The position numbers were made by a program, and so were the translations under genes. From a virus (taxonomy: Duplodnaviria; Caudoviricetes), in IMG/VR virus record IMGVR_UViG_3300042197_001662, positions 1-59,462 of that record: a DNA stretch of 59,462 bases; one strand, given 5' to 3'. Within the stretch, counting starts at the first letter, position 1. Every line of letters begins with the position of its first letter. The notes below the pieces were generated by a model, which did not search any database, was not told where the DNA came from, and worked only from the letters and a program-made list of their open reading frames with translations. This document shows positions 17,508 to 59,462 of this stretch, one piece after another.

Positions 17508-18518
17508 GTGGCTCAGACCAAAGCGCAATTAATTGACGGCAAGGGTGCGGTTGATTTAGGTGCCTTCAGTATTAGTGGTAGTGCTCCAGATAATTCTGTA
17601 AATCTTGACTCCAGCGGCAGGCTCTTAGTTGGTACGTCTACGAGTATTGCCGGCACAGGAGGCACCGCCGGACAGATTCAGCTACATGGAGCTTCAGGTA
17701 GCGGCGCGACACAATCCGTCAACAACTGGTCAAGTTCAGGAAGTGACCCAGCAAGGATTCTCCTTGGGAAGAGCTTAGGTGGCAGCGTTGGGACTCGTGG
17801 TGTTGTTACTTCTGGAAGTCATTTAGGTCTTATTCGCTTTGCCGGTGACGATGGCACTAATTTTATTGATGCCGCCACAATCTCAGCTTTTGTAGACGGC
17901 ACCCCTGGCGCTAACGACATGCCAGGCCGCCTAGTGTTCTCGGTGACGAGGGATGGCCAGGCATCGCCAACTGAGGCGCTCAGGATTACAAATGGTGGAG
18001 CAATTTCTTGTGGGCCGCAAGTTAGCGGTGCAGATCTTGTTGGAACAGAAGCCTGCGGTTTTGCTGCAGATGGTACTTTTGCACCCGTTTACAAAATAAA
18101 ATCTGCCTTAACTTCTAGCAAGTACGCCGCACTCTTTTTTAATGGGAATGGCCAAGTCGGCAACATTCTGATGAGCGGTTCAAGTACCGCTTACAATACC
18201 TCTTCCGACTACCGCCTCAAAGAAAACATCATTGCAGTCACTGACGGCATCACCCGCCTGCAGCAACTAAAACCAAGCCGGTTCAACTTCATCGCGGATC
18301 CCGACAAGACGGTTGACGGCTTTATTGCTCACGAAGTCCAGACCGTTGTTCCTGAAGCAATTCACGGAACCAAAGATGAAGTGGATGACGACGGCAATCC
18401 CGTCTACCAAGGCATTGACCAATCCAAGTTGGTGCCCCTGCTGACGGCTGCGCTGCAGGAAGCCATTGGTGAGATCGAAGCACTGAAGGCTCGTGTTGCT
18501 GCGCTTGAAGCGTCGTAG
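17508..18518 (+). CDS. Tail fibre protein with C-terminal peptidase S74 intramolecular chaperone; spans the junction between the two genomes
   Basis: DSSGRLLVGTS, DMPGRLVFS fibre repeats; SDYRLKENI, GFIAHEVQ.VVPEA, IDQSKLVPLLTAALQE + coiled coil. Confidence 0.9.
   Translation: MAQTKAQLIDGKGAVDLGAFSISGSAPDNSVNLDSSGRLLVGTSTSIAGTGGTAGQIQLHGASGSGATQSVNNWSSSGSDPARILLGKSLGGSVGTRGVVTSGSHLGLIRFAGDDGTNFIDAATISAFVDGTPGANDMPGRLVFSVTRDGQASPTEALRITNGGAISCGPQVSGADLVGTEACGFAADGTFAPVYKIKSALTSSKYAALFFNGNGQVGNILMSGSSTAYNTSSDYRLKENIIAVTDGITRLQQLKPSRFNFIADPDKTVDGFIAHEVQTVVPEAIHGTKDEVDDDGNPVYQGIDQSKLVPLLTAALQEAIGEIEALKARVAALEAS
17936..18062 (+). repeat. 127-nt exact direct repeat, copy 1 (copy 2 is the window end)
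   Basis: Base-for-base identical to 59336..59462; preceding base differs (T vs A). Confidence 0.97.
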
Positions 18519-18564
18519 TCCCCTTCACTACCCGCCCTGCAGCTTTTCCCCCAACCACCACCCC

Positions 18565-18744
18565 ATGACTGACACCTTCATCATCAGCGCCGAAGACAAC
18601 GACGAAGACGTGACCGATCTGGTCAAGCACGTTGCCGAACAGGTCAATGGCGTGACTGTTGAAACCAAACCGGGCGGCTCCATCAAGATGACGGGTGGCG
18701 CCAGCATCACGATGAGCGCAGACGGCGGCATCAAGATTGGCTGA
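18565..18744 (+). CDS. Small hypothetical protein
   Basis: MTDTFIISAED...GGSIKMTGGASITMSADGGIKIG. Confidence 0.55.
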   Translation: MTDTFIISAEDNDEDVTDLVKHVAEQVNGVTVETKPGGSIKMTGGASITMSADGGIKIG

Positions 18745-18989: not shown

Positions 18990-19331
18990 ATGGCAAAAGC
19001 CGCTGAACAAGTCCCAGGCGTTGATTTTCCCTTCACCAACTGGGACATCGCCAACATGGAGCGCACCATCGCTGATGGCGTGGTCTATACCGTCCACTAC
19101 ACCGTGACGCGGTTTGAGGATGGCGAACAGGCTGGCGCCTACGGGTCAATTGGTCTGGAACCGCCAGAAGCCGATCAACTCATCCCGTATGCCGACCTCG
19201 ATAAGGCGACCGTGGTGGGCTGGGTGAAAGCTAATTTTGGCGATGAAAAGGTGGCCGAGATCGAAGCTGCCCTGTCCACCGCCATCCAAGAAAAACTGCA
19301 CCCCACTAAAACCAACGGGGTGCCCTGGTAA
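18990..19331 (+). CDS. Conserved fibre-associated phage protein
   Basis: W.IANMER..ADG.V.TVHY..IPYADL....V.GWVK...GVPW; downstream of fibre. Confidence 0.65.
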   Translation: MAKAAEQVPGVDFPFTNWDIANMERTIADGVVYTVHYTVTRFEDGEQAGAYGSIGLEPPEADQLIPYADLDKATVVGWVKANFGDEKVAEIEAALSTAIQEKLHPTKTNGVPW

Positions 19332-19468
19332 TGGCGGTCAAATCCAAAGTAGGAACCGCTCGCGTCCAACACGTCCCAGGTAAGCCGAAACGCACTCGTC
19401 AAGGACAGGGGCAACATTCCCTGCCTAATCACGGGCGCAAAAAGATGCGCGGCCAAGGTAAGGGCTGA
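19331..19468 (+). CDS. Small basic protein (below ORF-track cutoff)
   Basis: MAVKSK..GKPKRTRQGQGQHS..RKKMRGQGKG*, coupled at both ends. Confidence 0.6.
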   Translation: MAVKSKVGTARVQHVPGKPKRTRQGQGQHSLPNHGRKKMRGQGKG

Positions 19469-19725
19469 TGCCCAGCTGGCTCTGGCGCTCCATCGTCGCC
19501 ACGTCCCTGGCGATAACGGTGGTCGCCACAACCCAGTGGGCATCCTGCCGTTTCTACATCCTGCCCAAAGTTGTGTGGCCCTGGTATGCCAAGTGGGTCG
19601 GCACACCCCAAGGCGGAATGATCGACCCAACACCCATGGGCTGCAACGACACAGATTCGCGTACCATCACAGTCTTGATGGGAGTTCTTACAACTTTGAT
19701 TAGCCTTAGTAGGAAAGCAGAATGA
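19468..19725 (+). CDS. Two-TM membrane protein
   Basis: Hydrophobic ends, paired Cys. Confidence 0.6.
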   Translation: MPSWLWRSIVATSLAITVVATTQWASCRFYILPKVVWPWYAKWVGTPQGGMIDPTPMGCNDTDSRTITVLMGVLTTLISLSRKAE

Positions 19726-19729: not shown

Positions 19730-19879
19730 GTGGACGATCGAATTAAAGAGAACTGGCGCAAGGTAAAAGATGCGCTTGAAACTGCCGGTAAAACCGATAG
19801 TTTCTTCTACCGTCGCGCCGCCGCAATCCTAAAAACTGGGCGCGACCCGGACGATCCTCCGGCACCGAATAAGATATAA
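19730..19879 (+). CDS. Small hypothetical protein (below ORF-track cutoff)
   Basis: MDDRIKENWRKVKDALETAGKTDSFFYRRA... Confidence 0.55.
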   Translation: MDDRIKENWRKVKDALETAGKTDSFFYRRAAAILKTGRDPDDPPAPNKI

Positions 19880-20140: not shown

Positions 20141-20325
20141 TGCCCGTCATCCATTCCACTGACCATGGCAACGGCTTCACGCTGGATCAACTAGAGAACG
20201 AACGCGGCGAACTGTATTACCGCGCCTGCAAAGACAGCATCTGCCGCTACGCCGAAGACCAATACATCGCGGTGATGTATCTCGAAGGAATGGGCTGGGA
20301 CCCTAAGCAACAAGACCCCCAGTAA
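20140..20325 (+). CDS. Small Cys-containing protein, homologue of 15822..16028
   Basis: GELYYRACKDSICRYAED. Confidence 0.6.
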   Translation: MPVIHSTDHGNGFTLDQLENERGELYYRACKDSICRYAEDQYIAVMYLEGMGWDPKQQDPQ

Positions 20326-20623
20326 TCCAAAAAACAATTTGATCTTCCCGCTCGGGCGTCCAAAACGGCTGGCGCCTGTACCACTCCAGCCAATCCTCGG
20401 ACGACTTGCCAATATTGCAAGCGAAGCAGCACGCCACCAAATTCCACTGGTGCGTAAGCCCTCCTTTCATCTTCGGATGCACGTGATCCAGCGTGGGATT
20501 CCGGTGCAGATCATCTCCGCAATATGCACACCGGTTATCCCATTCGCTGAGGATTGATTGCCTAAACCTTAACTTTGCCTCTTTTTTGTTTAAGTATTCG
20601 CCATCCTCGATGCGATGGTCCAT
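20303..20623 (-). CDS. HNH endonuclease
   Basis: CAYCG..TLDHVHPK.KGGLT...NLVACCFACN..K; same family as 5596..6006. Confidence 0.85.
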   Translation of the reverse strand: MDHRIEDGEYLNKKEAKLRFRQSILSEWDNRCAYCGDDLHRNPTLDHVHPKMKGGLTHQWNLVACCFACNIGKSSEDWLEWYRRQPFWTPEREDQIVFWITGGLVA

Positions 20624-20722
20624 ACCGTGCAGTGGCTACTGGAACGGTAGCGGTAGAAACTATTACGTGCTCTAGACGTCTTCTCTACTACAGCTAAACT
20701 TTAGAAAAGCCTTCGCTTTTTT

Positions 20723-20863
20723 ATGACCGACCAACAAATCGCCATTATTGCCATCATCGTTGCCGCCGGTAGCGAACTGATCGGCATGAGCAAACTGCGC
20801 TCCAACAGCTGGATTCAGCTGGTGCTGCAGGCGCTCCGTCTTATGTTCCCCAAGCGCCGCTGA
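20723..20863 (+). CDS. Putative holin (46 aa, below ORF-track cutoff)
   Basis: MTDQQIAIIAIIVAAGSELIGMSKLRSNSWIQLVLQALRLMFPKRR*, just upstream of the lysin. Confidence 0.6.
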   Translation: MTDQQIAIIAIIVAAGSELIGMSKLRSNSWIQLVLQALRLMFPKRR

Positions 20864-20880: not shown

Positions 20881-22008
20881 ATGGCAACCAATAAGATCCG
20901 TCTCCACGACCTCTTCCGCTTTTACAAGGCCCTTCCCCACCAGACCGCTGCCATCAGCGAACTGGAAGCTCTGATCAATAAGACCAATCCGCATATCCTC
21001 GGCCGCGACCAGGGCTGGTTCAAAACCTGGAGTGTGGCCGGCAAACAAACCACCTTTCCCAATACCTGGGAAGGCATGATCGAGGCCGCCCGAGTTGCTG
21101 GTGCAAAGTTCCCCGAACTCGTGGCCGCCCAATGGGCACTGGAATCCAACCACGGAAAGTTGGTTTCAGGCCGCAACAACTTTTTTGGCCTTAAGGGTGA
21201 AGGTAGCGCCACCAAAACGCAGGAATTTATCAACGGCCAGTGGGTCACCATCACTGACAGCTTCATCGACTTCCCCGATGTGCTGGCGTGTGTGATGTAC
21301 CTTGTCGACCACTGGTACAAGGACTACAAGCAATACAAGGGCTGCAATAACGCCGGCACCCGTGATGACGCCGCCCGCTGGCTCGTCAAAGAAGGTTATG
21401 CCACCGACCCCACCTACGCCGAAAAACTGATCGTGCTGATGAACCAGCACAGCGGTCTGACGCCCACACCAAAACCGAAAGAACGAATCCTCAAAGTCCC
21501 CTACGAATACCAACTGGGACCTGACGATGGCGCCCAAGGGTATCGCCAGTGTTTCAGCTCCAGTTGCGCGATGGTCGCCCGCTACTACGGCAAGATCTCC
21601 GGCGATTACGAGTACAACAAACTCCGCGCCCGTTTCGGTGATACCACCGACCCCAAAGCACAAATCGCCGCCCTCAAAGCACTGGGACTATCAGCCACCT
21701 TTGAGATGGACGGCACCATCGAAGAACTGGAGAGTGAAATCACCCACGGCTACCCCATGCCCTGCGGCTGGTTACACAAAGGCCCCGTCTCCAATCCAAC
21801 CGGCACCGGCCACTGGAGCGTCGTGGTGGGATTCACGCCAACCCACGTCATCATGAACGACCCCTTCGGGGAGGCAAACCTTGCTGCCGGCGGCTACGTC
21901 AGCAACAAGGGTGGGGCCGGCGTGGCTTACTCACGTAAAAACTGGCTGCCCCGCTGGCTGATCGAAGGAAACGATACCGGCTGGTTCATGAAAATCCGCC
22001 CCAGGTAA
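20881..22008 (+). CDS. Endolysin: GH73 glucosaminidase plus C39-like peptidase
   Basis: AAQWALES, NNFFGLKG, GYATDPTYAEKL (GH73); CFSSSCAM, GHW, NDPFG (C39). Confidence 0.9.
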   Translation: MATNKIRLHDLFRFYKALPHQTAAISELEALINKTNPHILGRDQGWFKTWSVAGKQTTFPNTWEGMIEAARVAGAKFPELVAAQWALESNHGKLVSGRNNFFGLKGEGSATKTQEFINGQWVTITDSFIDFPDVLACVMYLVDHWYKDYKQYKGCNNAGTRDDAARWLVKEGYATDPTYAEKLIVLMNQHSGLTPTPKPKERILKVPYEYQLGPDDGAQGYRQCFSSSCAMVARYYGKISGDYEYNKLRARFGDTTDPKAQIAALKALGLSATFEMDGTIEELESEITHGYPMPCGWLHKGPVSNPTGTGHWSVVVGFTPTHVIMNDPFGEANLAAGGYVSNKGGAGVAYSRKNWLPRWLIEGNDTGWFMKIRPR

Positions 22009-22010
22009 CT

Positions 22011-23474: not shown

Positions 23475-23641
23475 AAGACGCAATCTGAGACTCGCATGAT
23501 GGACTGGATCATGCAGCCAGGGTATTCATGCCGCACCATCTGCTGGGCATGGAACGCATCTGGCGCCACGACAAAGACGTCGAGCATCGGGCCGTGAAGG
23601 CGATACATCCTGACCCGATACTCAAAGTCTTGGCGCGTCAC
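23471..23641 (-). CDS. Small hypothetical protein (below ORF-track cutoff)
   Basis: GTGA overlap with the polA stop; MTRQDFEYRVRMYRLHG..VVAPDAFHA.. Confidence 0.5.
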   Translation of the reverse strand: MTRQDFEYRVRMYRLHGPMLDVFVVAPDAFHAQQMVRHEYPGCMIQSIMRVSDCVL

Positions 23642-25464
23642 TTTGCTTGATCCCAGCTCAATCCGACCTTAGCCTCGGCCAGCGGCGGAATATCTCCAAG
23701 CCAGCGAGCCTCACATTCTTCCATGATTGTTTGCAGCTGAAGCGCCCAAGTTTCAGCGTGTTCTTCTACGACGAGCAAGATGATCTCGTCATGCACCACG
23801 CCGGCCAAGCGCACGATGTCCTCCCCGTCTGCTCTAAGGAGCGGCCACAACTTGCTGAGCGTAAGTTTGAGCACGGCGGCACCAGCTCCCTGGATGGGAG
23901 TGTTGCAACGAGTGGTGAGTTTGTTGTTCTCGCCCGGAAGAAACCGCCGGAGCCCCGATATGCGGATGTTGATAGATGGATTGTTCGTAGCCGCATCAGC
24001 AGCGCGAGCATTTTTGTACTGCCAATCGTGGATCCCCGTATAAGCAGCGTGGAACTTTTCCCGCACTTCTTTCGCCTCATCAATATCCATCTGGATTCCC
24101 ATTGTTGCTGCATAGTTTCTGAGTCCTTTTGCACCGCTTCCGTATAACAAACCGAAGTTGGCCGACTTTGCAATCTGCCGCTGTTCCTTCGTAACCTCAT
24201 CCTCGGCAACCCCGTAGATCTGCATCGCCGTAATCGTATGCAGGTCTTTCCCCTGCTGGAACGCCTGAGTCATAAGCGGGTCTTGAGCTTCGGCAGCCGC
24301 CAGCCGCATCTCCATCCCGCCGTAGTCCGCTACAACCAGTCGCCAACCAGCTGGAGCCTGCACGCACGCCCTAAACCGCTGATCCCGTGGAATCTGTTGC
24401 AAGTTGGGACTCATGCAACTCATCCGCCCAGTATCAGCCCCCATCTGCAAATAACTGGCACGAATAAAGCCATCTTTCGACAAATTCTTTAACAAAGTCT
24501 CCGCCATCTGCCGCCGCTTTTCTACACGCTTCCACCGCAAATAATCAGCAATAACTTTATGTTCCGCCACATACTCTTGGAGCGCAGCCTTACTTGCACT
24601 TTTCTTTTCCGTCTTTGGATCAATCGGCGGTTCACCCAACAACGCGGTGAACTTCTTGAGCAACTGCACCGGACTATTTAAGTTAAAAATCTCGGCGTCA
24701 ATCTTTTTACCTTTCGCTCCAGGCTTTGTCTGGTACAGCAGTTTCCCGTCCAACCCGCGACACAGTTTGGCGCCTTCGGGCAGTGCAGCATCAAAGTCCT
24801 CGATGAACTTCTCGCCGATCTCGTGGTGCTCGATGTCGAGGTCTTCGATTAGTTGAATAAGGGAATCCTTATTAAAGGGAAGGCCGGTTCGCCATAATTG
24901 CGCCATCGCCGGCAATGCCTTGCACTCCAGCTGCCACGCCGGATAGAGACCACCAGTAGCCATCCGCTGTGCGACCTGCCGCTCCAGCTCGGTCAATACC
25001 ACCACATCCTTGGCGGCATAGGCCATTTGGCTCTCGGTGAGATCACCCGACCAATCACTCTTCTGCTCCTCCTTGGAGATCTCCTCCTTGAGATACCGCT
25101 TCACCACATGCTGGAGGCCGTGCTTGACGTTGGCCAAACCGTTGGTGAGCACCCGGCTGGCGAGCATGGTGCACAAGATCGTGCCAGCGGGATAGATCTC
25201 ATATTCCTGGAGCCAACCCAGATCAAACACCGCGTTGTGCGCGATCCAAGTGCGCTCGGTCTCAAAGAACTGCTCCAGCTCAATCCAATCGTTGGTCTCA
25301 AGCTGGAAGCAGTCGATCACAACGGGCGCCTGCCCCAGCGTGCACAACTGCAATAACCGTAACCCGCCAAATGTCGGCTGGAGCCCAGTCGTCTCCACGT
25401 CAAACGCAACCGTTTTCGCCCCCTCCAGAGTGGAGAGGTGCTCGATGCCAAAAAGGATTTCCAT
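23638..25464 (-). CDS. polA: Family A DNA polymerase with 3'-5' exonuclease domain
   Basis: FDVETTGL, HNAVFD, YAAKD exo motifs; TGRMS..PNLQQIP, ADYGGMEMR, RQIAKSANFGLLYG, QGAGA, VHDE. Confidence 0.95.
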   Translation of the reverse strand: MEILFGIEHLSTLEGAKTVAFDVETTGLQPTFGGLRLLQLCTLGQAPVVIDCFQLETNDWIELEQFFETERTWIAHNAVFDLGWLQEYEIYPAGTILCTMLASRVLTNGLANVKHGLQHVVKRYLKEEISKEEQKSDWSGDLTESQMAYAAKDVVVLTELERQVAQRMATGGLYPAWQLECKALPAMAQLWRTGLPFNKDSLIQLIEDLDIEHHEIGEKFIEDFDAALPEGAKLCRGLDGKLLYQTKPGAKGKKIDAEIFNLNSPVQLLKKFTALLGEPPIDPKTEKKSASKAALQEYVAEHKVIADYLRWKRVEKRRQMAETLLKNLSKDGFIRASYLQMGADTGRMSCMSPNLQQIPRDQRFRACVQAPAGWRLVVADYGGMEMRLAAAEAQDPLMTQAFQQGKDLHTITAMQIYGVAEDEVTKEQRQIAKSANFGLLYGSGAKGLRNYAATMGIQMDIDEAKEVREKFHAAYTGIHDWQYKNARAADAATNNPSINIRISGLRRFLPGENNKLTTRCNTPIQGAGAAVLKLTLSKLWPLLRADGEDIVRLAGVVHDEIILLVVEEHAETWALQLQTIMEECEARWLGDIPPLAEAKVGLSWDQAK

Positions 25465-44628: not shown

Positions 44629-44631
44629 TTC

Positions 44632-48007: not shown

Positions 48008-48010
48008 GCC

Positions 48011-48439: not shown

Positions 48440-48468
48440 TGTATTATTGAACAACTAGCTCTTACCCC

Positions 48469-48819: not shown

Positions 48820-49009
48820 TTCCAGCTGGTACTTCATTTACTTTTTGGCCACAGAACTGGGAATGACGGTTTCCCAGCTCACGAACCAGCTGACCCAAGA
48901 AGAACTAACAACCTGGGCGGCCTACTTCGAAATCCGTAACGAAGAGGAGGAAAAAGCGATGGAACGGGCCAAGCGCCAAGGTCAGACTGGAACGATGCGT
49001 TCCAAGTAA
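48815..49009 (+). CDS. Frameshift extension of tail chaperone (lambda T-like)
   Basis: +1 frame: ADSSWYFIYFLATELGMTVSQL...LTQEEL..WAAYFE...*. Confidence 0.7.
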   Translation, partial: ADSSWYFIYFLATELGMTVSQLTNQLTQEELTTWAAYFEIRNEEEEKAMERAKRQGQTGTMRSK

Positions 49010-49038
49010 ACTACTAACAGACTCTTCTACGCCCTGCC

Positions 49039-51741
49039 GTGGCCAATTACAGCGTAGACATTGAAGTAGGGCTAAAAGGCACAGAAAAACTGCGCGATCT
49101 CCGCAGCAACATTGATGCACTAGCCAACAAAATCAACACAATAAATAGTTATGCAGATGTATTTAAAGCGCCGCTGCAAAATGTTAAAAACTATAGTAAA
49201 GCATTACAAGAAGCAGCTGAGGCACTAAATAAAGCCGAACTAGGCACAAAAGATGAGACAGATGCAGTAAAACTATATGTACAAGCACTGGGTCAAGCGG
49301 AAGGCGTCCAAAAACGTCGTATCAATTTAATTGAGCAAGAAATTGAAGCGCAGAGACGTCTTGAAGTTCAGCAAACTAAGTCATCCCGTACCATTGAATT
49401 AGGTCCCGGTGGCCCCGGCTTTAGTGGAGGTTTTAGCGCAGCCGATCGTGCCCGTGCCAACCAAGCCGCACGTGAAAAAGAAAACGCGGGCCGCCGTCAA
49501 ACACTCGAACTTTTAAACAGAGAAGTTTCATTTGAAATTCGACTGCAAAATATACGTGAGCGTAACGCTGCACTAGCTGCAAAACAAGCACGCCAAGGTG
49601 GTGCTTTATCTAATGCCGTAATCGGCGGTGCCTTCCCGCTGCTCTTTGGCCAAGGCCCTGGTGCGGCTCTTGGCGGTGCCTTAGGCGGTGGAATCGGCGG
49701 TCGCATGGGTGGACAAGCCGGATTTGGCGGTTCACTCGTCGGCACTTTTGTCGGTCAAGCGACTATCGACTTTGCTATTAACAGCGTCGTTCAACTCGGC
49801 AACGCACTTAAAAAACCAACCGAAAATATCCAAGAGCTAACAAAATTTTTGAGCATCGCTGGTACTCAAGTAAATACAACTATTGATGTCTTACGCGGCT
49901 TAGGTCTTGAATCAGTTGCAGCTTCAGTTGCACTCCAGGAACTTGAAAAACGCCTCGGCGATCAAGGTTTTAAAGACGTAAAAACTATATCTAAAGATCT
50001 ACAAGACTTTGATAATACTCTTCGTGATCTACGCCTAGCCGCCGCATTACTCGGAACAAAATTTAAACCGTTGCTTGATTTTATTACTGCAGTAGTTAGT
50101 GCGGCTGCTAAAGCAGGTCTTCCACGCGGTGGAACACTCGCCACAGTTTCCAATGTGGCTGTGGCAACCGGAGCAGGTACTGGACGTCCTGCACAAGGTG
50201 CCGGTGCACGAACTACAACTGCTGACGTAACTATCGAGAGCGTCATAGCGCGTCGCGTCGCTCTTGCCGCCAATGAAGTTTCGCTGGAACGCGAGCGTCT
50301 GTCTCTTGGACGTGTAGCCCTCGCATCCCGCCAAGGTGAACTCCAGATTCAACGTCTATCGGTGGATCTCGAAGAAAAAAGACTGAATCTACTAAAAGAA
50401 CAAGACCCGGCTAAGCGCAAACTGCTGGGACTAGAAGTTCAAATAACCGAGCAACAAAAACAGCAAGCTGAAGCTGCGCGACAGAACGCGATAATTGAGG
50501 CGCAACGTCAAGTACAGCGTGATCTTGTTGGACTTGAGATCCAAAAAGAAGGTGTAAGCGCACAGATAAATACTTTAATTGCTGAACGAATCACTCTTCA
50601 ACGCGGAGAATCAGCGGGTATTTCAGCACGAATGGATATGCTGAACGACGAATTACAGTCTCGCGCTCGCGTTCTGCAGTACCAAAGGGATATTTCTTTG
50701 ATAGGCGTAAAAGAAGCTTCCGTACGAACTGAAATAAATGAACTATATAAAGGTCAAATGTCTCAGTTACTTATTGAAGTAAACAACAGAAAAGAAGCAC
50801 TTAAACAGCAACAAGCTCAATATAATTTGAGCCAATTACAGATTGATCAACAACGCCAATTAGCAAATATCCAATCTAAAACACAATACGGCTTGCAAAT
50901 TGCAACGCTTAAAGCTGAAAGTGACCCGCGTTTCCGTGGTTTATTCGGCGGCAGCCGCCGCACTCAAGAAATAATGCAACTGGAACAGCAAGCTGCGCTG
51001 TCAACAATGACGACTCAGCTAACTGCATTGGAAGCACAGGCTGCTGTCCCAGGGATAGCTCCAGACACAAAACGCGGTCTGCAACAACAAACGGATGCGT
51101 TAAAGGATCAGATAGCTATTTACAGAGAATATCAGCCGGCAGTTATTCAAGCCACGGTTGCCCAACAGAAATTTAACGAGACGATGGCTCTAACCAACCC
51201 CATCGTCGATGGTGTATTTGAAAGTTTCATGTCAGTGGCATCCGCAACTAAATCGGCCGAACAGGCATTTGCAGACTTCTTGATGTCTGTTTCACAGATG
51301 CTATTTGACACTGTAAAGCAGATGATTGCCCAGTACATCGCACTGGGTATTGCCCGTTCGTTCGCCGGTATTCCGCCCGCCGGTGGCGGCAACGTGGCCG
51401 GGCTATTCGGAGCTGGTGCTCCAAGTGCTGTTGCTGGCGGCGGCATTTTTTCCGGCGCGGGGCCTTTTCAGTTCCGCGCAAACGGGGGTCCTGTATCCGC
51501 AGGACGCCCTTACCTCGTCGGCGAACGCGGTCCCGAACTGTTCATGCCGCGTTCCAGCGGCAGCATCTACCCCAACGATGCTATGGGCATGGGTGGTTCA
51601 AACATCGTGGTGAACGTCGACGCCGGTGGCTCTAGTGTGGGAGGCGATCCCGGCCAAGCCAACATGCTCGGCAAAGCCATCGGCATTGCAGTCCAACAAG
51701 AACTCATTAAGCAAAAACGACCCGGAGGCTTGCTCGCCTAA
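49039..51741 (+). CDS. Tape measure protein
   Basis: 900 aa helical, Gly-rich hydrophobic segment, C-terminal RA.GGPV..G.PYLVGERGPELF.P. Confidence 0.9.
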   Translation: MANYSVDIEVGLKGTEKLRDLRSNIDALANKINTINSYADVFKAPLQNVKNYSKALQEAAEALNKAELGTKDETDAVKLYVQALGQAEGVQKRRINLIEQEIEAQRRLEVQQTKSSRTIELGPGGPGFSGGFSAADRARANQAAREKENAGRRQTLELLNREVSFEIRLQNIRERNAALAAKQARQGGALSNAVIGGAFPLLFGQGPGAALGGALGGGIGGRMGGQAGFGGSLVGTFVGQATIDFAINSVVQLGNALKKPTENIQELTKFLSIAGTQVNTTIDVLRGLGLESVAASVALQELEKRLGDQGFKDVKTISKDLQDFDNTLRDLRLAAALLGTKFKPLLDFITAVVSAAAKAGLPRGGTLATVSNVAVATGAGTGRPAQGAGARTTTADVTIESVIARRVALAANEVSLERERLSLGRVALASRQGELQIQRLSVDLEEKRLNLLKEQDPAKRKLLGLEVQITEQQKQQAEAARQNAIIEAQRQVQRDLVGLEIQKEGVSAQINTLIAERITLQRGESAGISARMDMLNDELQSRARVLQYQRDISLIGVKEASVRTEINELYKGQMSQLLIEVNNRKEALKQQQAQYNLSQLQIDQQRQLANIQSKTQYGLQIATLKAESDPRFRGLFGGSRRTQEIMQLEQQAALSTMTTQLTALEAQAAVPGIAPDTKRGLQQQTDALKDQIAIYREYQPAVIQATVAQQKFNETMALTNPIVDGVFESFMSVASATKSAEQAFADFLMSVSQMLFDTVKQMIAQYIALGIARSFAGIPPAGGGNVAGLFGAGAPSAVAGGGIFSGAGPFQFRANGGPVSAGRPYLVGERGPELFMPRSSGSIYPNDAMGMGGSNIVVNVDAGGSSVGGDPGQANMLGKAIGIAVQQELIKQKRPGGLLA

Positions 51742-52082
51742 TGGCTACCTTCCCTGCGATAACTCCAACTTATGGCGCCCAAAAAGCCAGCCGCCCCGTG
51801 GTCCGCACGGTCCAGTTCGGCGACGGTTACCAACAACGCCTGACCTACGGCCTCAACCAAAACCCCAAGAGCTGGAGCCTGACCTGGGAAGTCTCCGAAA
51901 CCGACGCCGACACAATCGAAACCTTCCTCAACAACCGCGCTGCTGACAACGCCAGCTTCGACTGGACGCCACTTGATGAAGGCACTTCCTACAAGTGGAT
52001 TTGCCAGGAATGGAGCAAAACTGTTCCATATAAAAATCGCGCCACGATTACAGCAACATTCCAGCAAGTATTTGAACCCTGA
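51741..52082 (+). CDS. Distal tail protein (lambda M-like)
   Basis: VQFGDGYQQR...GLN, IE.FL, SF.WTP, ATF.QVFEP. Confidence 0.9.
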   Translation: MATFPAITPTYGAQKASRPVVRTVQFGDGYQQRLTYGLNQNPKSWSLTWEVSETDADTIETFLNNRAADNASFDWTPLDEGTSYKWICQEWSKTVPYKNRATITATFQQVFEP

Positions 52083-52975
52083 TGGCGTACTCAGCCTGGG
52101 CTTCCACTACCGCCTACGTCGTCGGTGACATTGTTCGCGCCACGACGCTGCAATCGTCTGGTCTTGTTTTCCAATGCACCACGGCTGGCACCAGCGGCAG
52201 CACGCAGCCCGTCTGGGCAACGGATATTGGCAGCACCGTCACTGATGGCACGGTCACGTGGACCGCGATTGCCAGCACCTACGAAGAACTTGCGGCGATT
52301 GCTCCCAGCGCGATCATCGAACTATTTGAGCTGACGCTGGACGCCACACTGCATGGCAGCAGCGATACCTACCGCTGGCACAACGGTTGCAACGCCAACG
52401 TCACCGGCAACGTCACCTGGAACGGCAACGCCTACACCCGCCTTCCGGTCAAGGCAGATGGCTTTGAGTACACCAACACGGGTACGCTGCCGCGCCCCAC
52501 GCTGACCATCGCCAACTTGGATGGCACGATGACGACGCTGTTGTTGCTCGTTAATGCGACCACTGCGGGCAACGATCTCGGCGGCGCCACGGTCAAGCGT
52601 ATCCGCACCCTGAAGAAATACCTAGACGGTGAAGCCAACGCCGACCCGCACGCCAAGTTTCCCGACGAAATCTGGTATGTGGACCGCAAGGCAAGTGAAA
52701 CCCGCGACGCCGTGAGCTTTGAGCTTGCCAGCAAATTCGACCTGGCTGGTGTGATGATCCCGAAGCGCCAGATCATCGCCAACATCTGCCAGTGGAAATA
52801 TCGCAGTAGTGAGTGCGGCTACACCGGCAGCAACTACTGGAACATCAACGATCAGTCGGTTGGCACTTTGGCGGAAGATAAGTGCGGCAAGCGCCTCAGC
52901 TCGTGCAAATTACGGTTCGGCGCCACTGCTGAATTGCCCTTCGGCTCGTTCCCCGGCGCAGGTTTGACCGAATGA
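52082..52975 (+). CDS. Tail tip protein (lambda L-like) with N-terminal extension
   Basis: IELFEL, LPRPTL, RIRTL.KYLD, FELAS..DL, four-Cys C.W.YR..ECGY...DKC.KRLSSC..RF. Confidence 0.9.
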   Translation: MAYSAWASTTAYVVGDIVRATTLQSSGLVFQCTTAGTSGSTQPVWATDIGSTVTDGTVTWTAIASTYEELAAIAPSAIIELFELTLDATLHGSSDTYRWHNGCNANVTGNVTWNGNAYTRLPVKADGFEYTNTGTLPRPTLTIANLDGTMTTLLLLVNATTAGNDLGGATVKRIRTLKKYLDGEANADPHAKFPDEIWYVDRKASETRDAVSFELASKFDLAGVMIPKRQIIANICQWKYRSSECGYTGSNYWNINDQSVGTLAEDKCGKRLSSCKLRFGATAELPFGSFPGAGLTE

Positions 52976-53685
52976 GGCTCACCGACAGCATCAAAGAACA
53001 GGCACTGGAGCACGCCAAGGCGGAATTTCCGGCTGAATCCTGCGGTCTTGTTGCCGTCGTCAAAGGGCGCAAACGGTATTTCCCATGCCGCAACCTTGCG
53101 GAAACGCCGGACGAGCACTTTGTTCTTGACCCGCTCCAGTACGCCGAGGTTGAAGATCAGGGCGAAATCGTGGCGGTGGTGCATAGCCACCCCAAAACCA
53201 ACCACGCGCCGTCCCAAGCTGATCGCGTCGCCTGCGAAAAATCTGGGTTGCCTTGGCACATCGTCAATCCCCAGACCGAGCAATGGGGCTACTGCGAGCC
53301 GGAAGGCTTTGAGCTGCCCTACGTGGGGCGTGAGTTCGTCTTTGGCATCGTCGATTGCTATTCGCTCTGCCGCGACTGGTACAAGCGGGAGTTTGGACTG
53401 GATCTCAAGGACTACGACCGCCGCGATCAGTTCTGGCTCAAGGGCGAGAGCCTCTACATGGACAACTTCGCCAACGAAGGCTTCCACCGCATCCCACTGA
53501 AAGAGCTGCAATACGGCGACGCCATTTTGATGCAACTGGAATCGTCACTACCCAACCATGCAGCGATTTACCTAGGCGATCAGTTGATCCTGCACCACCT
53601 GCAAAGACGCCTCAGTAGCCGGGATCTGTACGGCGGTTATTATTTGAAGAGCACCGCCTGCGCCCTGCGGCATGAAAGTCGTTAA
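52972..53685 (+). CDS. Tail assembly protein K-like: JAB/MPN plus NlpC/P60
   Basis: ESCG, HSHP....PSQAD (JAMM); DCYSL, NHAAIY, ILHH. Confidence 0.92.
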   Translation: MRLTDSIKEQALEHAKAEFPAESCGLVAVVKGRKRYFPCRNLAETPDEHFVLDPLQYAEVEDQGEIVAVVHSHPKTNHAPSQADRVACEKSGLPWHIVNPQTEQWGYCEPEGFELPYVGREFVFGIVDCYSLCRDWYKREFGLDLKDYDRRDQFWLKGESLYMDNFANEGFHRIPLKELQYGDAILMQLESSLPNHAAIYLGDQLILHHLQRRLSSRDLYGGYYLKSTACALRHESR

Positions 53686-54346
53686 GGTCTACGGCGCACT
53701 CCGCAAACGACTGGGGCAGTGTCGCTTCCAATTTGATGTTGACACCCCAGCGCAAGCATTTAAAGCGTTGTGTGTTAATTTTCCCGGTCTAGACAAGTGG
53801 TTAATTGATAGTGAACAAGAAGGGGTTGGTTATCGGCTAACAATCGGCAAGGAAAAAATAAACGAAACCAATGCTGTTTTAATCGGCTGCCCGTGGAGTG
53901 AGCAAGAAGTTTTTAGCATCACACCCGTTATTGCTGGTGCCGGTGGTAATGCTGCCGCAAGTATCGGCATTGGCGTCGGCTTGGTATTTGCCTCGTTCTT
54001 GCTGCCCGGTGCTGGTCTTTTTGGCGCTACAAGCTTGTTTGGAGCTACTGCTACAGCCACTGGTGCGGCTGGCGCTTTAACCACCTTGGGCGTTGCGTTG
54101 AGTGGATTAGGTGCGTCGCTGGTTATTGGAGGTATTGCACAAGCAATTTCACCGTCTCCAATAATGTCTACCGCTGCAAATAACTCGTTTGAACGTGGAC
54201 GTGAAGCTGCCAAGTTTGAGTCGTTTACCTTCAGCGGAATTGTCAATACCGCCAAGCAAGGTTTACCCGTGCCAATCGCCTACGGGCGCTGCTTCGTAGG
54301 TTCCGCTGTGCTCTCCAGCGGTCTTGACGTGGATCAAATCCTATGA
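53672..54346 (+). CDS. Tail assembly protein I-like (ubiquitin-like fold)
   Basis: VKVYGAL...G, PVIAGAGG, hydrophobic Gly-rich middle, QGLPVPIAYG..FVGS..LS. Confidence 0.9.
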   Translation: MKVVKVYGALRKRLGQCRFQFDVDTPAQAFKALCVNFPGLDKWLIDSEQEGVGYRLTIGKEKINETNAVLIGCPWSEQEVFSITPVIAGAGGNAAASIGIGVGLVFASFLLPGAGLFGATSLFGATATATGAAGALTTLGVALSGLGASLVIGGIAQAISPSPIMSTAANNSFERGREAAKFESFTFSGIVNTAKQGLPVPIAYGRCFVGSAVLSSGLDVDQIL

Positions 54347-57300
54347 CTCGCATTGTTGGTGCTGGTGGCGGCGGTGGTGGAGGCGGTTGCTTTCTTGGGC
54401 ACACGCTTGTTGCCACACCAACGGGCGAACGCCGCATTGATGAGCTACGCCCCGACGATCTTGTCTGGAGCTTCGACCACAACGGCGGAATCCACGAAGC
54501 CAAGGTGCTCAAGGTTCACAAGCACGAAAACGAGCGCGTCATCCGTTACACGCTCTGGGGCGGTCAGATCCTTGATGCCACGCCAAACCACTGGGTACTC
54601 AACCAGTTCAACGCCTTCGTCGAAATCGACACCCTTGGCGCGGACGACTGCCTAGTCGATCACAACGGGCACCTGCGCCCCATCGTCAGCAAGGCTGAAT
54701 TTTGCAATGGCACCGTCTACAACCTGACGGTCGAAGGGCACCACACTTTTATTGCTGGCGGAATCCGCGTCCATAACGCCGGTCTAGGTCTGGGTATCGC
54801 CGGTTCCGGTGGAGGCGGTGGAGGCGGCGGTGGCAGCAAAGGTGGCGGCGGTGGCGGTGGCGCCAGTCGTACCCCTACCGAAGCCGACGACTCGCTTCAG
54901 TCTGTCCAATTTGGCAGCGTGCTGGATCTGCTGTCGGAAGGCGAAATCCAAGGCATCGAAAACGGCAACAAGGGTATTTATCTCGCTGGCACACCGATTG
55001 AAGATGCTGCCGGAAACGTCAATTTCTCCGGCTTCACGATCGAAAGCCGCACTGGTACACAAGCCCAGAGCTATATCAGCCAACAGATTGGCACCGAAAG
55101 CGAAAAAGGCGTCAACGTCGAAGTCTTCAAAGACACCCCAGTCGTTCGCACCATCACCGATTCAGACGTTGATCGTGTTCGCGTAACGCTGCAAATCCCG
55201 GCGCTACAAATCTTCCTGGATAACGGCGACATTATCGGACACAGCGTACAAATTCAGATCCAAGTTCAGTACAACTCCGGCGGCTACACAACAGTTGTCA
55301 CCGACACGATTAGCGGCAAGACCAGCAATCCTTACCAGCGCGATTACATGTTGTTGCTGTCTGGAGCATTTCCTGTTGACATCAAAGTTGTCCGCGTCAG
55401 TGACGACGAAACAACCGCCCGCCGCCAAAACCTGACCTACTGGTTTAGCTACACCGAAATCATTGATGAAAAACTGCGTTACCCCAACAGCGCACTGGCA
55501 TACCTGCGTTTTGATTCGCGCCAGTTTGATTCAATCCCAACCCGCAAATATCTGATTCGCGGCGTCAAAGTACAACTGCCATCTAACGCCACTGTTGATA
55601 CCACCACTTACCCAGGTCGCGTGACCTACGCAGGCATCTGGGACGGCACATTTGGCGCGGCGACATGGTGCAGTGACCCTGCCTGGTGTTTATACGACCT
55701 GCTCACTAACACCCGTTATGGCGCGTCAATTCCCGCCAGCAGCCTCGATAAATACGACTTCTACGCCATCAGCCAATACTGCAACACGCTGGTAAGCAAC
55801 GGACGCGGCGGGCAAGAACCGCGCTTCTCGTGCAACCTGCTCATCAACAGCCGCGACGAGGTTTACAACGTCATCCAAGAGATGACAAGCCTGTTCCGTG
55901 GCATCGCGTATTACGGCGCTGGCTCGCTGGTACTGCAGCAGGACAAACCCACCGATTCGCAGTATCTGATTGGTCCCAGCAACGTTATTGACGGCAACTT
56001 TGTTTATAGCGGCACCTCACAAAAAGCCCGCCATACCACCGCCACTGTTGCTTGGCAGTCCTACGACACCCTTGGTGAAGTCGAATACGAATACGTTGAA
56101 GACGCCGACGCTGTAGCCAAATACGGCATCATCAACAAAGATATCAAGGCGCTGGGTTGTTACAGCCAAGGGCAGGCACATCGCGCTGGTAAGTGGGCGC
56201 TACTGAGCGAACAAAACCTGACCGAAACTGTCACCTTCTCGGTGTCAATCGACAGTGGCATCATCTTGCGCCCCGGCATGGTGATCGACGTTGCCGATCC
56301 GTTGAAAGCTGGCTCACGCCGTAGCGGTCGCGTCAAGTCCGCCACGACAACCGCCATCACGATTGACAGCAGCACTGATCTGACCGTCAACCTATCCAAC
56401 AGCCCAACAATTTCGGTGTTGATGCCAACGGGCTTGGTGGAAACCAAATCCATCAGCAGCATCAGCAGCGGCGTTATAACCGTCAGCAGCGCCTTCAGCG
56501 AAGCTCCTAACGCCAACAGCGTCTGGCTCATCCAAACCAGCGACATCCAATCCCAGCAATATCGCGTTTTGAATGTTGCTGAAGCGGAAGATGGAATTTA
56601 CGGCGTCACCGCACTGGAATACAACAGCAGCATTTATGCCGCCATTGAATCAGACATCAATCTGACCGAACGAGACATCAGCAACCTGTCTAACAAACCT
56701 GATGCCCCAAGCAGTCTGGGTGGAACGGAATATCTATACCAAGACGGGCAAAGTGTATTTTCCGGCTTCGACCTGAGCTGGACTAGCCCGAAACAGCGCG
56801 TCAACGAATTTCGCGTTAAGTGGCGCATTGATAACGACAACTGGAGCCAAGCCAACACCACGTCACCGTCCCTGCAGATCAAAAACACCCGCAAGGGCAC
56901 GCTGTATGTCCAAGTCACCGCCGCCAACTACCTCAATAAGGTCAGCGAAATTGCCGTTGCCCAATTTGACCTGATTGGCAAAACCGCTGTTCCCGGCAAC
57001 GTCCAAAACCTCACGTTTGAAGCAATCAATAACAACTCCGGTCGCCTGCGCTGGACCGAAACCGTTGACCTTGACGTGAAGGTTGGTGGCAAGATCCATA
57101 TTCGCCACAGCAGCCTCACTGACGGCACCGCCACTTGGAGCAACAGCGTTGACCTGATCCCAGCAAAATCCGGCTCTTCTACTGAGGCGATTATTCCGCT
57201 GGTGGAAGGCGAAGTGCTGGTGAAATTTGAGGATGACGGTGGACGACAAAGCGCCAGCGAAACCAGCGTCATCATTGATCTGCCCGACACCATCGCCCCG

Positions 57301-58110
57301 CTCACGATCCAAACCCGGCGAGAAGATCAAGATGCCCCACCGTTCCAAGGATCGAAGGTGGATGTGTTTTACAGCGACGAGTTCGATGCGCTCACGCTGG
57401 ATGGCGACACCGCTTTCGACACCGTTGTTGATGTTGACGCCATGGTCAACTTTGACGTGATTGGCGAAGTCCTTGGCTCAGGCAATTACACCTTCCTGAA
57501 CACGTTGGATCTGGGCAACACCTTTGCCGTTGACCTGCGCCGTTATTTCGTCACCCGTGGCTACTACCCGTCCGATCTAATCGACTCCCGCACCAACACG
57601 GTGGACGACTGGAGCGATTGGGACGGCGCCGTGACCGACAAGGTAAATGCCAAGCTGATGTTGCGCTCCACCACCGACAACCCAAGCAGCAGCCCGACTT
57701 GGGGAAGCTGGCAGGAGTTTGTCAACGGCACCTTCCGTGGTCGCGGCTTCCAGTTCCGCGCTGACCTCACCAGCAGCGCCATCGACCAAAACATCTTGGT
57801 GGACGAGCTGGGCTATGACGCCACCTTCCAGCGTCGCGCTGAAAACAGCGATGGAGCGGTCAGCAGCGGTGCAGGCGCCAAGGCGATCACCTTCGCCAAT
57901 CCGTTCTGGACTGGTACGGCAAGCCTCGGCGGGGTCAACGCCTACCTGCCAAGCATCGGCATCACGGCCCAAAACATGGGCACCGGCGATTACTTTGAAG
58001 TCACCAGCGTCAGTGGCACCGGCTTTACGGTTACCTTCAAAAATTCGGGTGGCACTGCCGTCAGCCGTAACTTCAACTGGAGTGCGGTTGGTTATGGCAG
58101 AGGCGGTTAA
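54343..58110 (+). CDS. Central tail fibre/tail tip protein J-like with N-terminal Hint domain and FN3-like repeats
   Basis: DLLSEGEI.G, LRYPNSAL, WDGTF, DPAW.LYDLLT..RYG, EPRF, GC.S.GQA.R.G.W, PG.VI.VADP. Confidence 0.93.
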   Translation: MTRIVGAGGGGGGGGCFLGHTLVATPTGERRIDELRPDDLVWSFDHNGGIHEAKVLKVHKHENERVIRYTLWGGQILDATPNHWVLNQFNAFVEIDTLGADDCLVDHNGHLRPIVSKAEFCNGTVYNLTVEGHHTFIAGGIRVHNAGLGLGIAGSGGGGGGGGGSKGGGGGGGASRTPTEADDSLQSVQFGSVLDLLSEGEIQGIENGNKGIYLAGTPIEDAAGNVNFSGFTIESRTGTQAQSYISQQIGTESEKGVNVEVFKDTPVVRTITDSDVDRVRVTLQIPALQIFLDNGDIIGHSVQIQIQVQYNSGGYTTVVTDTISGKTSNPYQRDYMLLLSGAFPVDIKVVRVSDDETTARRQNLTYWFSYTEIIDEKLRYPNSALAYLRFDSRQFDSIPTRKYLIRGVKVQLPSNATVDTTTYPGRVTYAGIWDGTFGAATWCSDPAWCLYDLLTNTRYGASIPASSLDKYDFYAISQYCNTLVSNGRGGQEPRFSCNLLINSRDEVYNVIQEMTSLFRGIAYYGAGSLVLQQDKPTDSQYLIGPSNVIDGNFVYSGTSQKARHTTATVAWQSYDTLGEVEYEYVEDADAVAKYGIINKDIKALGCYSQGQAHRAGKWALLSEQNLTETVTFSVSIDSGIILRPGMVIDVADPLKAGSRRSGRVKSATTTAITIDSSTDLTVNLSNSPTISVLMPTGLVETKSISSISSGVITVSSAFSEAPNANSVWLIQTSDIQSQQYRVLNVAEAEDGIYGVTALEYNSSIYAAIESDINLTERDISNLSNKPDAPSSLGGTEYLYQDGQSVFSGFDLSWTSPKQRVNEFRVKWRIDNDNWSQANTTSPSLQIKNTRKGTLYVQVTAANYLNKVSEIAVAQFDLIGKTAVPGNVQNLTFEAINNNSGRLRWTETVDLDVKVGGKIHIRHSSLTDGTATWSNSVDLIPAKSGSSTEAIIPLVEGEVLVKFEDDGGRQSASETSVIIDLPDTIAPLTIQTRREDQDAPPFQGSKVDVFYSDEFDALTLDGDTAFDTVVDVDAMVNFDVIGEVLGSGNYTFLNTLDLGNTFAVDLRRYFVTRGYYPSDLIDSRTNTVDDWSDWDGAVTDKVNAKLMLRSTTDNPSSSPTWGSWQEFVNGTFRGRGFQFRADLTSSAIDQNILVDELGYDATFQRRAENSDGAVSSGAGAKAITFANPFWTGTASLGGVNAYLPSIGITAQNMGTGDYFEVTSVSGTGFTVTFKNSGGTAVSRNFNWSAVGYGRGG
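54388..54777 (+). other. Hint (bacterial intein-like) domain, 130 aa, no endonuclease
   Basis: CFLGHTLV.TP.G...I.EL; ATPNH (TxxH); VYNLTVEGHHTFIAGGIRVHN, followed by Ala. Confidence 0.92.
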
Positions 58111-58145
58111 AGTGAGACAAATACTGTCCTGAAGCGGGCTAGCTC

Positions 58146-59462
58146 ATGGCTCAGCACGATTACGTTATTGCCAACGGCACTGGTGCAGCCGTCCGCAGTG
58201 ACCTCAATAACGCGCTTGCTGCGATTGTGTCACAGAACAGTGGCGCAACGGAACCCGCAACGACCTACGCGTTCCAGTTCTGGGCAGATACCACCACCAG
58301 CACCTTAAAGCTCAGAAATAGCGCGAACAATGCCTGGATCGAGCTGCTGCAGCTTGACGGCACGCTGACCATGGAAGACGGCACCGAGGCGCTGCCCGGT
58401 CTTGCCTTCCGCTCCGACCTCGATACCGGAGTCTGGCGCCCAGGAACCAACTCACTGGCGATCAGCACCAACGCCGTGGAGCGCGTTGAATTTGGCGCCA
58501 GCGAAGTTGTTTTCAATGACGGCGGCGCTAACTACGACTTCCGCGTCGAAGGTGATACAAACGCAAACCTGCTATTTGTTGACGCCTCGGCAGATGCGGT
58601 AGGCATAGGGTCTTCGACGCCTCAAGATTCTCTACAAGCGCCAAATGCACGCTTTACAGTTTTTTCGGCAGGCGGATCAAGTGGCTCAACATTTGATAAT
58701 GGTGTTCGGATTCTTTCGGGTGACGGAGGCCCTGGAAATAGACCTTCTATACAAATCAGTGGTGGTGGCACCGCTGGACTTAGCAACAAAAGTTTCCGCA
58801 CCTATTACGACAACGGCGGAACAGAATCTTTGTATTTTACCTACCAGGGCGGTGCTTATTTCGGAGCAGCGGTAGGGATTGGCGTTACGAGTCCTACGCA
58901 AGCACTAGAAGTTGCCGGTTCAATTCGCCTTAACAATGATCTTCTTGTTGCCGATGCAACTGCAACTCGTGGTCGCATTTATGGTGACTCCACTGGATTG
59001 GTTGTTCGCGCTGACACGGGACTTCAACTCCGATTCCATGCTGATGCTCAAGAGAAGGCGCGTATTGATACATCAGGACGCCTGTTAGTTGGCACGTCTA
59101 CGAGTGCTAGCGCGGGTGATGCTCAATACGCAAAGTTACAAGTTCAAGGAAACACAAATAACAACGCCGGTAGCGCCATTTTTGCTCTTTTAAGAGGAGA
59201 AGCGGCAACAAGTATTACTTCGGGCGAGTCAATCGGCTTGCTTCAATTTGCGGACAGTTCTGGCAATCCATTTGGGTATATTCAGTGTGTAGCCGATGGA
59301 AATGCGGGATCGGGTGATTACCCAGGACGCATAGAGTTCTCGGTGACGAGGGATGGCCAGGCATCGCCAACTGAGGCGCTCAGGATTACAAATGGTGGAG
59401 CAATTTCTTGTGGGCCGCAAGTTAGCGGTGCAGATCTTGTTGGAACAGAAGCCTGCGGTTTT
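58146..59462 (+). CDS. Side tail fibre, open to window end (absent from ORF track); completed in frame by 18063..18518 on circularisation
   Basis: MAQHDYVIANGTGAAVRSDLNNAL.AI; DTSGRLLVGTS; last 42 codons identical to those in 17508..18518. Confidence 0.9.
   Translation, partial: MAQHDYVIANGTGAAVRSDLNNALAAIVSQNSGATEPATTYAFQFWADTTTSTLKLRNSANNAWIELLQLDGTLTMEDGTEALPGLAFRSDLDTGVWRPGTNSLAISTNAVERVEFGASEVVFNDGGANYDFRVEGDTNANLLFVDASADAVGIGSSTPQDSLQAPNARFTVFSAGGSSGSTFDNGVRILSGDGGPGNRPSIQISGGGTAGLSNKSFRTYYDNGGTESLYFTYQGGAYFGAAVGIGVTSPTQALEVAGSIRLNNDLLVADATATRGRIYGDSTGLVVRADTGLQLRFHADAQEKARIDTSGRLLVGTSTSASAGDAQYAKLQVQGNTNNNAGSAIFALLRGEAATSITSGESIGLLQFADSSGNPFGYIQCVADGNAGSGDYPGRIEFSVTRDGQASPTEALRITNGGAISCGPQVSGADLVGTEACGF
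59336..59462 (+). repeat. 127-nt exact direct repeat, copy 2
   Basis: Identical to 17936..18062 up to the last base of the window. Confidence 0.97.

Follow-up and report, generated by a model that had tools for sequence, protein, structure and literature searches.

The 59,462-bp window analyzed here, the whole of the Caudoviricetes virus record IMGVR_UViG_3300042197_001662, which is classed as 'linear' in IMG/VR with a CheckV estimate of 100%, is most likely a chimeric 'lasso' contig that arose in a de Bruijn-graph assembly with a final k-mer length (k) of 127 and that consists of a 41,400-bp circular phage genome preceded by a fragment of a second phage, the two meeting in their tail fibre genes. 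A first-pass annotation of the window had reported that its last 127 nt equal positions 17936-18062; an exact comparison agrees, and this 127-mer is present at just these two sites in the window.

17936-18062, plus strand: internal copy of the 127-nt repeat, encoding residues 144-185 of a 336-aa fibre (FSVTRDGQASPTEALRITNGGAISCGPQVSGADLVGTEACGF) and read as the graph vertex that would merge both fibre genes
59336-59462, plus strand: terminal copy of the 127-nt repeat, flush with the contig end

The match stops leftward at 17935/59335, and rightward extension of the terminal copy is impossible because the contig ends there. The 600 nt upstream of each copy are 29.5% identical without gaps, which is the random level. 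With the terminal copy excluded, no exact repeat exceeds 22 nt, compared to a chance expectation of about 16 nt for the longest one at this length, and no other repeat of 30 nt or more was found in the window. The two copies lie 41,400 nt apart from start to start, and joining 58146-59335 to 17936-18518 yields 1773 nt that encode 590 aa and a stop codon with no internal stops, while the open reading frame (ORF) of the left arm, 17508-18518, encodes 336 aa, such that both junctions are in frame. The in-frame join and a Pfam match to Peptidase_S74 (S74) bear out the earlier proposal that circularization would produce a 590-aa fibre with an S74 end. The repeat thus has two properties of a k-mer overlap artefact, a length equal to the final k of the JGI workflow and one copy placed exactly at a contig end.

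A de Bruijn graph merges sequences into one vertex at any k-mer they have in common, and a path around a cycle that meets a vertex again writes its k-mer twice; the maximum k of SPAdes is 127. The sample would have contained two phages whose fibre genes become identical at 17936/59336, inside the motif PGR(L/I)xFSVTRDG, and the first shared 127-mer would have formed a single vertex with two incoming branches. The path would then have entered from the phage of the left arm, rounded the 41,400-bp circular map once and halted at the same vertex, and this vertex, being met twice, would have been printed twice. The biology underlying such a graph may be the exchange of a distal fibre cassette through homologous recombination in a conserved repeat-unit motif, between phages that meet in the same host. 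Both the identity of the assembler and the separateness of the two molecules are points that we infer, and the metagenome workflow of the JGI is described as using metaSPAdes with k of 33, 55, 77, 99 and 127 (bioRxiv 10.1101/2020.09.30.320929). If the assembler was of the de Bruijn type, both versions of the fibre exist in the sample, because each entry into the vertex needs reads that hold the 127-mer together with its preceding base; and if the chimeric reading holds, the sample contained two clearly different phages whose fibre genes are identical over at least 127 nt.

Similarly to the k-length overlaps of circular paths in SPAdes and metaSPAdes, the window has an exact k-long overlap at the contig end, and trimming it gives a closed circle with an intact gene. 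Unlike in those paths, the second copy is internal (17936) and a 17.9-kb tail precedes the circle, and it is because this copy does not lie at base 1 that the record is classed as 'linear' in IMG/VR.

Gene Content and Closure of the Circle

Gene content and gene order mark the 41,400-bp circle as genuine and complete, a genome from a lineage with a complete member of 42.4 kb. That member is the public uncultivated virus record G002 (42,566 bp, CheckV 99%), which holds locus L022. Although also a 'linear' record in IMG/VR, G002 is in effect a closed genome (42,422 bp without the overlap) that was missed by exact-repeat detection: its first and last 144 nt overlap inside PolA at 96.5% (5 mismatches), and it therefore closes on itself at about 42.4 kb. 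Gene families in the window were assigned by PHROG scans of 102 ORFs over its whole length, and the features of the circle are as follows.

17936-59335, no strand assigned: 41,400-bp circle, complete siphovirus-type genome, with a full gene set and colinearity with G002 that includes the closure
20881-22008, plus strand: circle endolysin (glucosaminidase and C39-like peptidase domain), 81% identity with the G002 homologue
23638-25464, minus strand: DNA polymerase A (phrog_17), 79% identity with G002, whose record ends split this gene
29951-32377, minus strand: primase/helicase (PriCT_2 and AAA_25), 79% identity with G002
37741-38991, plus strand: large terminase (TerL; phrog_2), 83% identity with G002
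41828-46494, plus strand: portal (41828-43369), collagen-like protein (43373-44401), scaffold (44632-45345) and major head protein (45415-46494), assigned by PHROGs
49039-58110, plus strand: tail module of tape measure, four minor tail/assembly genes and J-like central fibre, with colinear homologues in L040, L056, L012, L061 and L088 and none in G002
58146-59462, plus strand: N-terminal 438 aa of the circle fibre, open at the contig end, with a phrog_29834 N-terminal anchor and an in-frame continuation at 17936-18518

The PHROG families of the circle include endolysin, PolA, dCTP deaminase, primase/helicase, exonuclease, TerL, portal, scaffold, major head, adaptor and terminator proteins, as well as a tail set of tape measure, four minor tail/assembly proteins, J-like central fibre and fibre. 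Families were thus found for each of the replication, packaging, head, tail and lysis functions that had been attributed to the circle from the sequence.

Homologues in G002 were identified for 42 of the 72 listed circle ORFs. The replication, packaging, head and lysis genes of the two genomes are 50-85% identical at the amino acid level and stand in the same order (PolA, primase, SSB-like gene, exonuclease, TerL, portal, head genes), and both place an S74-tipped fibre between the tail and lysis genes. Across the closure, G002 proceeds from the fibre tip to its counterparts of the 19041-19328 gene and of 20153-20860, then to the lysin and back into PolA. The two genomes differ in the tail, where the tape measure, minor tail and J genes of G002 have no detectable homologue in the window.

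Other public loci preserve the same arrangement on either side of the junction. By blastn, the order J, fibre N-terminus, S74 tip is found in seven partial loci (L040, L056, L043, L013, L066, L061, L088), and the order tip, lysin, PolA in six others (L020, L016, L007, L025, L022, L024). A circle-type anchor and an S74 tip share one stop-free ORF in 19 of the 25 loci that have both, a count that includes some contigs present in two collections (for example L030 and L157); these ORFs span 327-745 aa, four of them 585-604 aa compared to 590 aa here, and the remaining six loci have stops or differing frames between anchor and tip. Because relatives keep both the anchor-plus-tip ORF and the order across the closure, the join 59335 to 17936 restores a natural gene and a natural gene order. 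Closing the circle accordingly gives an intact gene, a conserved order across the closure, and a size and gene set that match a complete relative.

The circle is itself mosaic, with the tail module at 49039-58110 resembling L040, L056, L061, L088 and L012 and the replication, packaging, head and lysis genes resembling those of G002.

The Left Arm as Part of a Second Lineage

The genes upstream of the repeat place the left arm in another lineage, apparently one of larger phages with their own tail and replication genes. This lineage is represented by c35, a 35,016-bp contig (L015 and L100, record G004; CheckV 41%) that is unrearranged relative to positions 3357-18014 of the arm.

1-17935, no strand assigned: left arm, predicted fragment of a phage like c35 and Synechococcus phage S-EIV1, lying between two fibre-cassette regions (c35 colinearity over 3357-18014; tetranucleotides)
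1-134, plus strand: 3' end of a truncated gene akin to ORF 1475-1930, with the contig start inside the gene; 70% nt identity to 1747-1880
139-1930, plus strand: three fibre-region genes (139-804, 807-1469, 1475-1930), of which 807-1469 matches the tail fibre families phrog_11355 and phrog_3484
3360-4592, plus strand: left-arm endolysin (Phage_lysozyme and C39-like peptidase domain), 43% identity to the c35 lysin and 34% to the circle lysin, the latter in the C-terminal domain only
5323-5524, minus strand: tRNA-Thr(TGT) at 5323-5394 and tRNA-Leu(TAA) at 5442-5524, found with ARAGORN
16028-17501, plus strand: left-lineage marker genes 16028-16978 and 17316-17501, adjoining the fibre on its upstream side, with homologues that precede a fibre gene in unchanged order in c35/L100, L099 and L130

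Among the 39 ORFs listed for the arm, 27 have a homologue in c35 and six in G002; these ORFs were listed mechanically, and some of them are antisense. High-scoring tblastx segment pairs of at least 50 bits to c35 cover 10,364 of the 17,935 arm nt (58%) and 1,430 of the 41,400 circle nt (3%), and those to G002 cover 21,505 circle nt (52%) and 849 arm nt (5%). Outside the shared block, c35 has tail genes without a match in the window, a phrog_1156 primase, an exonuclease and speD. The primase differs in family from that of the circle (phrog_906) and is closest to that of S-EIV1 (79,178 bp), with 35.5% identity over 98% of its length. In addition, c35 carries two fibre genes, one of 586 aa with S74 and one of 547 aa, which lie about 16 kb apart and flank the same gene block as is found in the left arm.

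The frame-2 translation of positions 1-134 aligns with the C-terminal part of ORF 1475-1930, and since the contig thus starts inside a second, truncated copy of a gene like this ORF, both ends of the arm lie in fibre-cassette regions. CheckV estimates completeness at 41% for c35 (35 kb), at 14% for L099 (11.6 kb) and at 74-76% for the 58-60-kb records of L018 and L039, which are more distant carriers of one left-arm gene, and on these estimates a genome of the left lineage would measure about 80-85 kb.

Composition follows the same division. In 3-kb chunks the guanine-cytosine (GC) fraction is 0.47-0.52 in the arm and 0.53-0.61 in 12 of 13 circle chunks, and in a tetranucleotide test that was trained on the sequence it scores, and is supportive only, 5/5 arm and 12/13 circle chunks fall nearest the mean of their own group, with the sign switching near 18.0-18.3 kb. 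Taken with the endolysin and the tRNA-Thr and tRNA-Leu genes, the lower GC chunks confirm the first impression of a more AT-rich arm with its own lysin, fibres and tRNAs.

The arm also encodes a 2OG-Fe(II) oxygenase-like protein (7556-8545), whose best isolate matches are mostly cyanophages, a second protein of the Phage_lysozyme family (9364-10098) and a homologue of Phd-like antitoxins (13216-13476).

The Fibre Locus and the Shared Stretch

17508-18518, plus strand: left-arm fibre as assembled, 336 aa, with an N-terminus of the 'xQTKAQL' type, one repeat unit, a distal module and an S74 chaperone
18204-18362, plus strand: Peptidase_S74 (intramolecular chaperone) domain, PF13884, residues 233-285, 36.2 bits compared to a cut-off of 22

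The match to PF13884 lies above the gathering score and at the C-terminal end, as in a fibre with an S74 chaperone, and the domain begins with the stretch NTSSDYRLKENI, which we take to be the putative autocleavage site, with the conserved serine at which the chaperone would be released. The first-pass annotation had called the shared tip receptor-binding; the S74 domain of that tip is indeed present, but the S74 part of known fibres is an autocleaved folding chaperone that is distinct from the receptor-binding surface.

The N-terminus of the left-arm fibre (VAQTKAQL) recurs as MSQTK(A/V)(Q/E)L in the 547-aa fibre of c35 (fibre B) and in a 201-aa ORF of L099, and the fibre of L130 aligns from residue 1, matching window residues 1-332 at 51%. 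The distal parts found at this slot of the left lineage vary: that of the 547-aa c35 fibre is without S74, the L099 ORF ends at 201 aa, and L130 is S74-tipped. Because three relatives share the N-terminus and not the distal parts, the start of ORF 17508 is native to the arm and its distal part a swappable cassette.

Upstream of the repeat, the two fibres of the window are themselves homologous (about 51% aa over 152-153 aligned residues, which include the 42 identical residues that the repeat encodes). Their identity begins within PGR(L/I)xFSVTRDGQASPTEALRITN, the motif that closes each repeat unit and that is conserved in c35, L068 and L112. The fibre of L068 follows the left fibre at 85% identity as far as RITN and is divergent beyond, and that of L112 is about 88% identical from GGAISCG onward and about 45% before. 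As the identities of both switch there, a module border falls after RITN, with the shared 127-mer reaching 23 codons past it into GGAISCGPQVSGADLVGTEACGF, a stretch that marks this type of tip and that L112 has as well.

A protein-pattern scan of the metagenome_contigs collection with the 336-aa fibre covered the best 80 loci of at least 600 stretches, and the best relative among the matches listed was L112, with 71% identity overall and about 88% in the tip; it is not the same phage. For fibres as similar as the closest outside tips, at 81-86% nt identity, the probability of 127 consecutive matches is below 1e-8, and at 97% identity it is 0.02. Since such a run of matches is improbable at the identity of outside tips, both phages would carry a nearly or fully identical stretch, pointing to recent exchange. 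The sharing probably continues to 18518, taking in all of the distal module together with the S74 chaperone. The earlier claim of a near-identical tip common to both phages therefore stands for 127 nt, which cover the last repeat motif and extend 23 aa into the distal module, and for the remainder of the tip it is inferred.

The DUF7936 protein gene at 18990-19331 (phrog_7802) follows the fibre and has homologues in 104 of 191 fetched loci, and its S-EIV1 homologue (2654-2962) is annotated as 'lysozyme' in GenBank. An 85-aa ORF at 19468-19725 has a homologue in one of the 191 loci, namely the left-arm relative c35, where it lies directly after fibre A with 72% aa identity; in the window the ORF belongs to the circle part, and this single match is too slender to support a conclusion. 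The small gene at 19730-19879, with homologues just after the fibres of c35 and L099, was considered as a marker of longer sharing and rejected, as homologues are present in 26/191 loci that include J-bearing ones of the circle type, such as L020.

Alternative Explanations for the Contig

The initial preference for a chimeric lasso is strengthened by relatives of the circle that conserve the order across the closure and by the colinearity of the arm with another lineage. An unlikely variant of this explanation is that the contig is chimeric and the sharing short, from about 127 to a few hundred nt that cover the final repeat unit and the beginning of the module after it; no receptor-binding tip would then be common to the phages, and the left phage's own distal end and downstream genes would have been dropped or placed on another contig. 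The first-pass annotation rightly noted that the shared extent beyond 18062 is unreadable from the window, in which just 127 nt are demonstrably common. Short sharing would also agree with the start of the stretch in PGRLVFSxTxDGxxSPTE, which is conserved across many fibres, with the different distal parts of the left lineage in c35 (547 aa, no S74) and L099 (201 aa), and with the circle-like composition downstream of 18.3 kb. Against it, the 127-mer passes the border defined by L068 by 23 codons into the tip-specific stretch that L112 shares, the improbability of 127 matches at 81-86% identity makes the stretch recent and most simply a whole-cassette acquisition, and L130 provides a left-lineage fibre of this length with an S74 tip.

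Several observations weigh against a chimera of two phages with a common tip. An exact 30-mer from the shared stretch had no match in viral_contigs and none in metagenome_contigs, collections from which the window's own record was possibly left out, and no independent contig with the exact tip was found, the closest outside tips being 81-86% identical in nucleotides (about 81% for the best, L112). Partial sharing between the fibres needs a second fork in the graph, and the window shows neither its site nor why the path ignored it. The tape-measure chunk of the circle, 48001-51000, groups with the arm in the tetranucleotide test. The left end of the window (1-1930) consists of modules with homologues mostly in circle-type, J-bearing loci, and homologues of the genes at 139-1930 follow J and the fibre N-terminus in L012, L081, L056, L043 and L178, which are of this type. 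L068 and L069 are natural single contigs that join a left-type N-terminal fibre part to the lysin and dCTP deaminase genes of the circle type. Finally, an identical end pattern would result from one larger genome with two copies of the repeat and a contig that stopped at the second of them.

The last two points also speak for a single real molecule, either a co-integrate or recombinant formed by crossover between fibre genes or a genome of at least about 60 kb that carries the cassette twice, as do the two fibre genes that c35 holds about 16 kb apart around the block of the left arm and the homologue of ORF 139-804 that directly follows the S74 tip in the circle-type L056. We regard this explanation as improbable. 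In the hybrid form of it, to which we give a similarly small chance, a siphovirus of 42 kb would have crossed over with an S-EIV1-like phage of about 80 kb in the fibre repeat motif during co-infection, leaving a replicating intermediate or a packaged recombinant with two distal cassettes. The circle alone is already the size of a complete genome of its lineage (G002, 42.4 kb, CheckV 99%), and with the same head genes an extra 17.9 kb would raise the DNA to about 143% of this capacity. Neither G002 nor c35 contains the other part, and among the 191 loci examined a G002-type gene set never occurs together with a c35-type block, in keeping with the lower likelihood that the first-pass annotation had assigned to a co-integrate. 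On a single molecule, lysin, phrog_7595 and phrog_2214 HNH genes would each be present twice (34-62% identity), alongside two composition classes, and the first bases of the contig do not repeat the end of the shared stretch, as they should in a whole repeat-bearing circle. Integration or excision of a temperate element, with the repeat as the att core and the window as a circle with carrier flanks, is a general source of lasso or 'lollipop' graphs and was rejected here as having a negligible chance: no integrase family was found among the 102 ORFs of the PHROG scan, the repeat lies within two homologous coding fibre genes that are both kept in frame, and the left arm is phage DNA rather than host DNA. 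The chimeric lasso accordingly remains our preferred explanation of the window.

Relatedness of the Two Parts and Possible Hosts

The description of the two phages as unrelated was too strong, as four homologous pairs link arm and circle. The most similar in amino acids is a phrog_7595 gene (62% identity), followed by the fibre (51%), an HNH gene (37%) and the C-terminal domain of the lysin (34%). In addition, each part shares genes with S-EIV1, and the same fibre module families occur in both lineages. The two parts are distantly related to S-EIV1 (KJ410740.1, 79,178 bp, circular map), a phage that itself has an S74-tipped fibre and a lysin like that of the circle and that, similarly to c35, has primase and speD near each other. 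The matches of S-EIV1 to the circle include the fibre tip (62%), the gene at 19035-19331 (52%) and the lysin (55-63%), and those to the arm include 6283-6456 (78%) and 11852-12295 (58% aa); matches of at least 50 bits cover 1,249 arm nt and 2,700 circle nt. The TerL of the circle is 42-43% identical to those of Vibrio phages and of cyanophage S-2L. By megablast, neither part matched any of 50,697 phage records, and close cultured relatives are therefore absent from that set. These similarities suggest a common gene pool for the two parts, and the hosts are possibly cyanobacterial.

Other Features of the Window

Between the TerL/HNH genes and the portal, outside the tail module, two tandem genes (40473-40889 and 40942-41358) both match phrog_10528 (major tail protein), are 73-75% identical to each other in nucleotides and contain the 22-nt exact repeat. 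The 342-aa product of 43373-44401, between portal and scaffold, has a collagen-like, 9-nt-periodic repeat array at 43790-44143 and many 'tail fibre / collagen-like' PHROG matches. Seven HNH-type endonuclease genes are spread across both parts (5554-6006, 6453-7079, 14451-15152, 20303-20623, 27593-27988, 34097-34570, 38972-39481), one of which directly follows TerL on the opposite strand.

Implications

Exchange of distal receptor-binding modules behind conserved N-terminal anchors has been described for many phages, among them T7 and K1F and, for their receptor-binding proteins, Klebsiella phages, and an autocleavable chaperone at the distal end is known for such fibres (PMC6872550). The fibres of the window are alike in that each phage has its own anchor (phrog_29834 and the 'xQTKAQL' type, respectively), followed by a shared distal part with a distal chaperone domain; they differ in that the border lies in a conserved internal repeat-unit motif, that the carriers are expected to differ about twofold in genome size, and that identity is 100% over the visible part, pointing to a very recent event. 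The window is thus most likely an ordinary assembly artefact built on ordinary fibre-module swapping, and it raises no new question.

The value of the result is foremost one of curation, with the record best read as a complete circular genome of 41,400 bp and 17.9 kb of another phage. Left uncorrected, it overstates the genome size, conceals a closed genome, and blends two lineages wherever it is used for clustering or host prediction. Beyond this, the window offers a clean example of distinct phage types in one sample whose fibre genes contain an identical stretch that starts at a conserved motif, which fits the movement of fibre cassettes among phages that share hosts.

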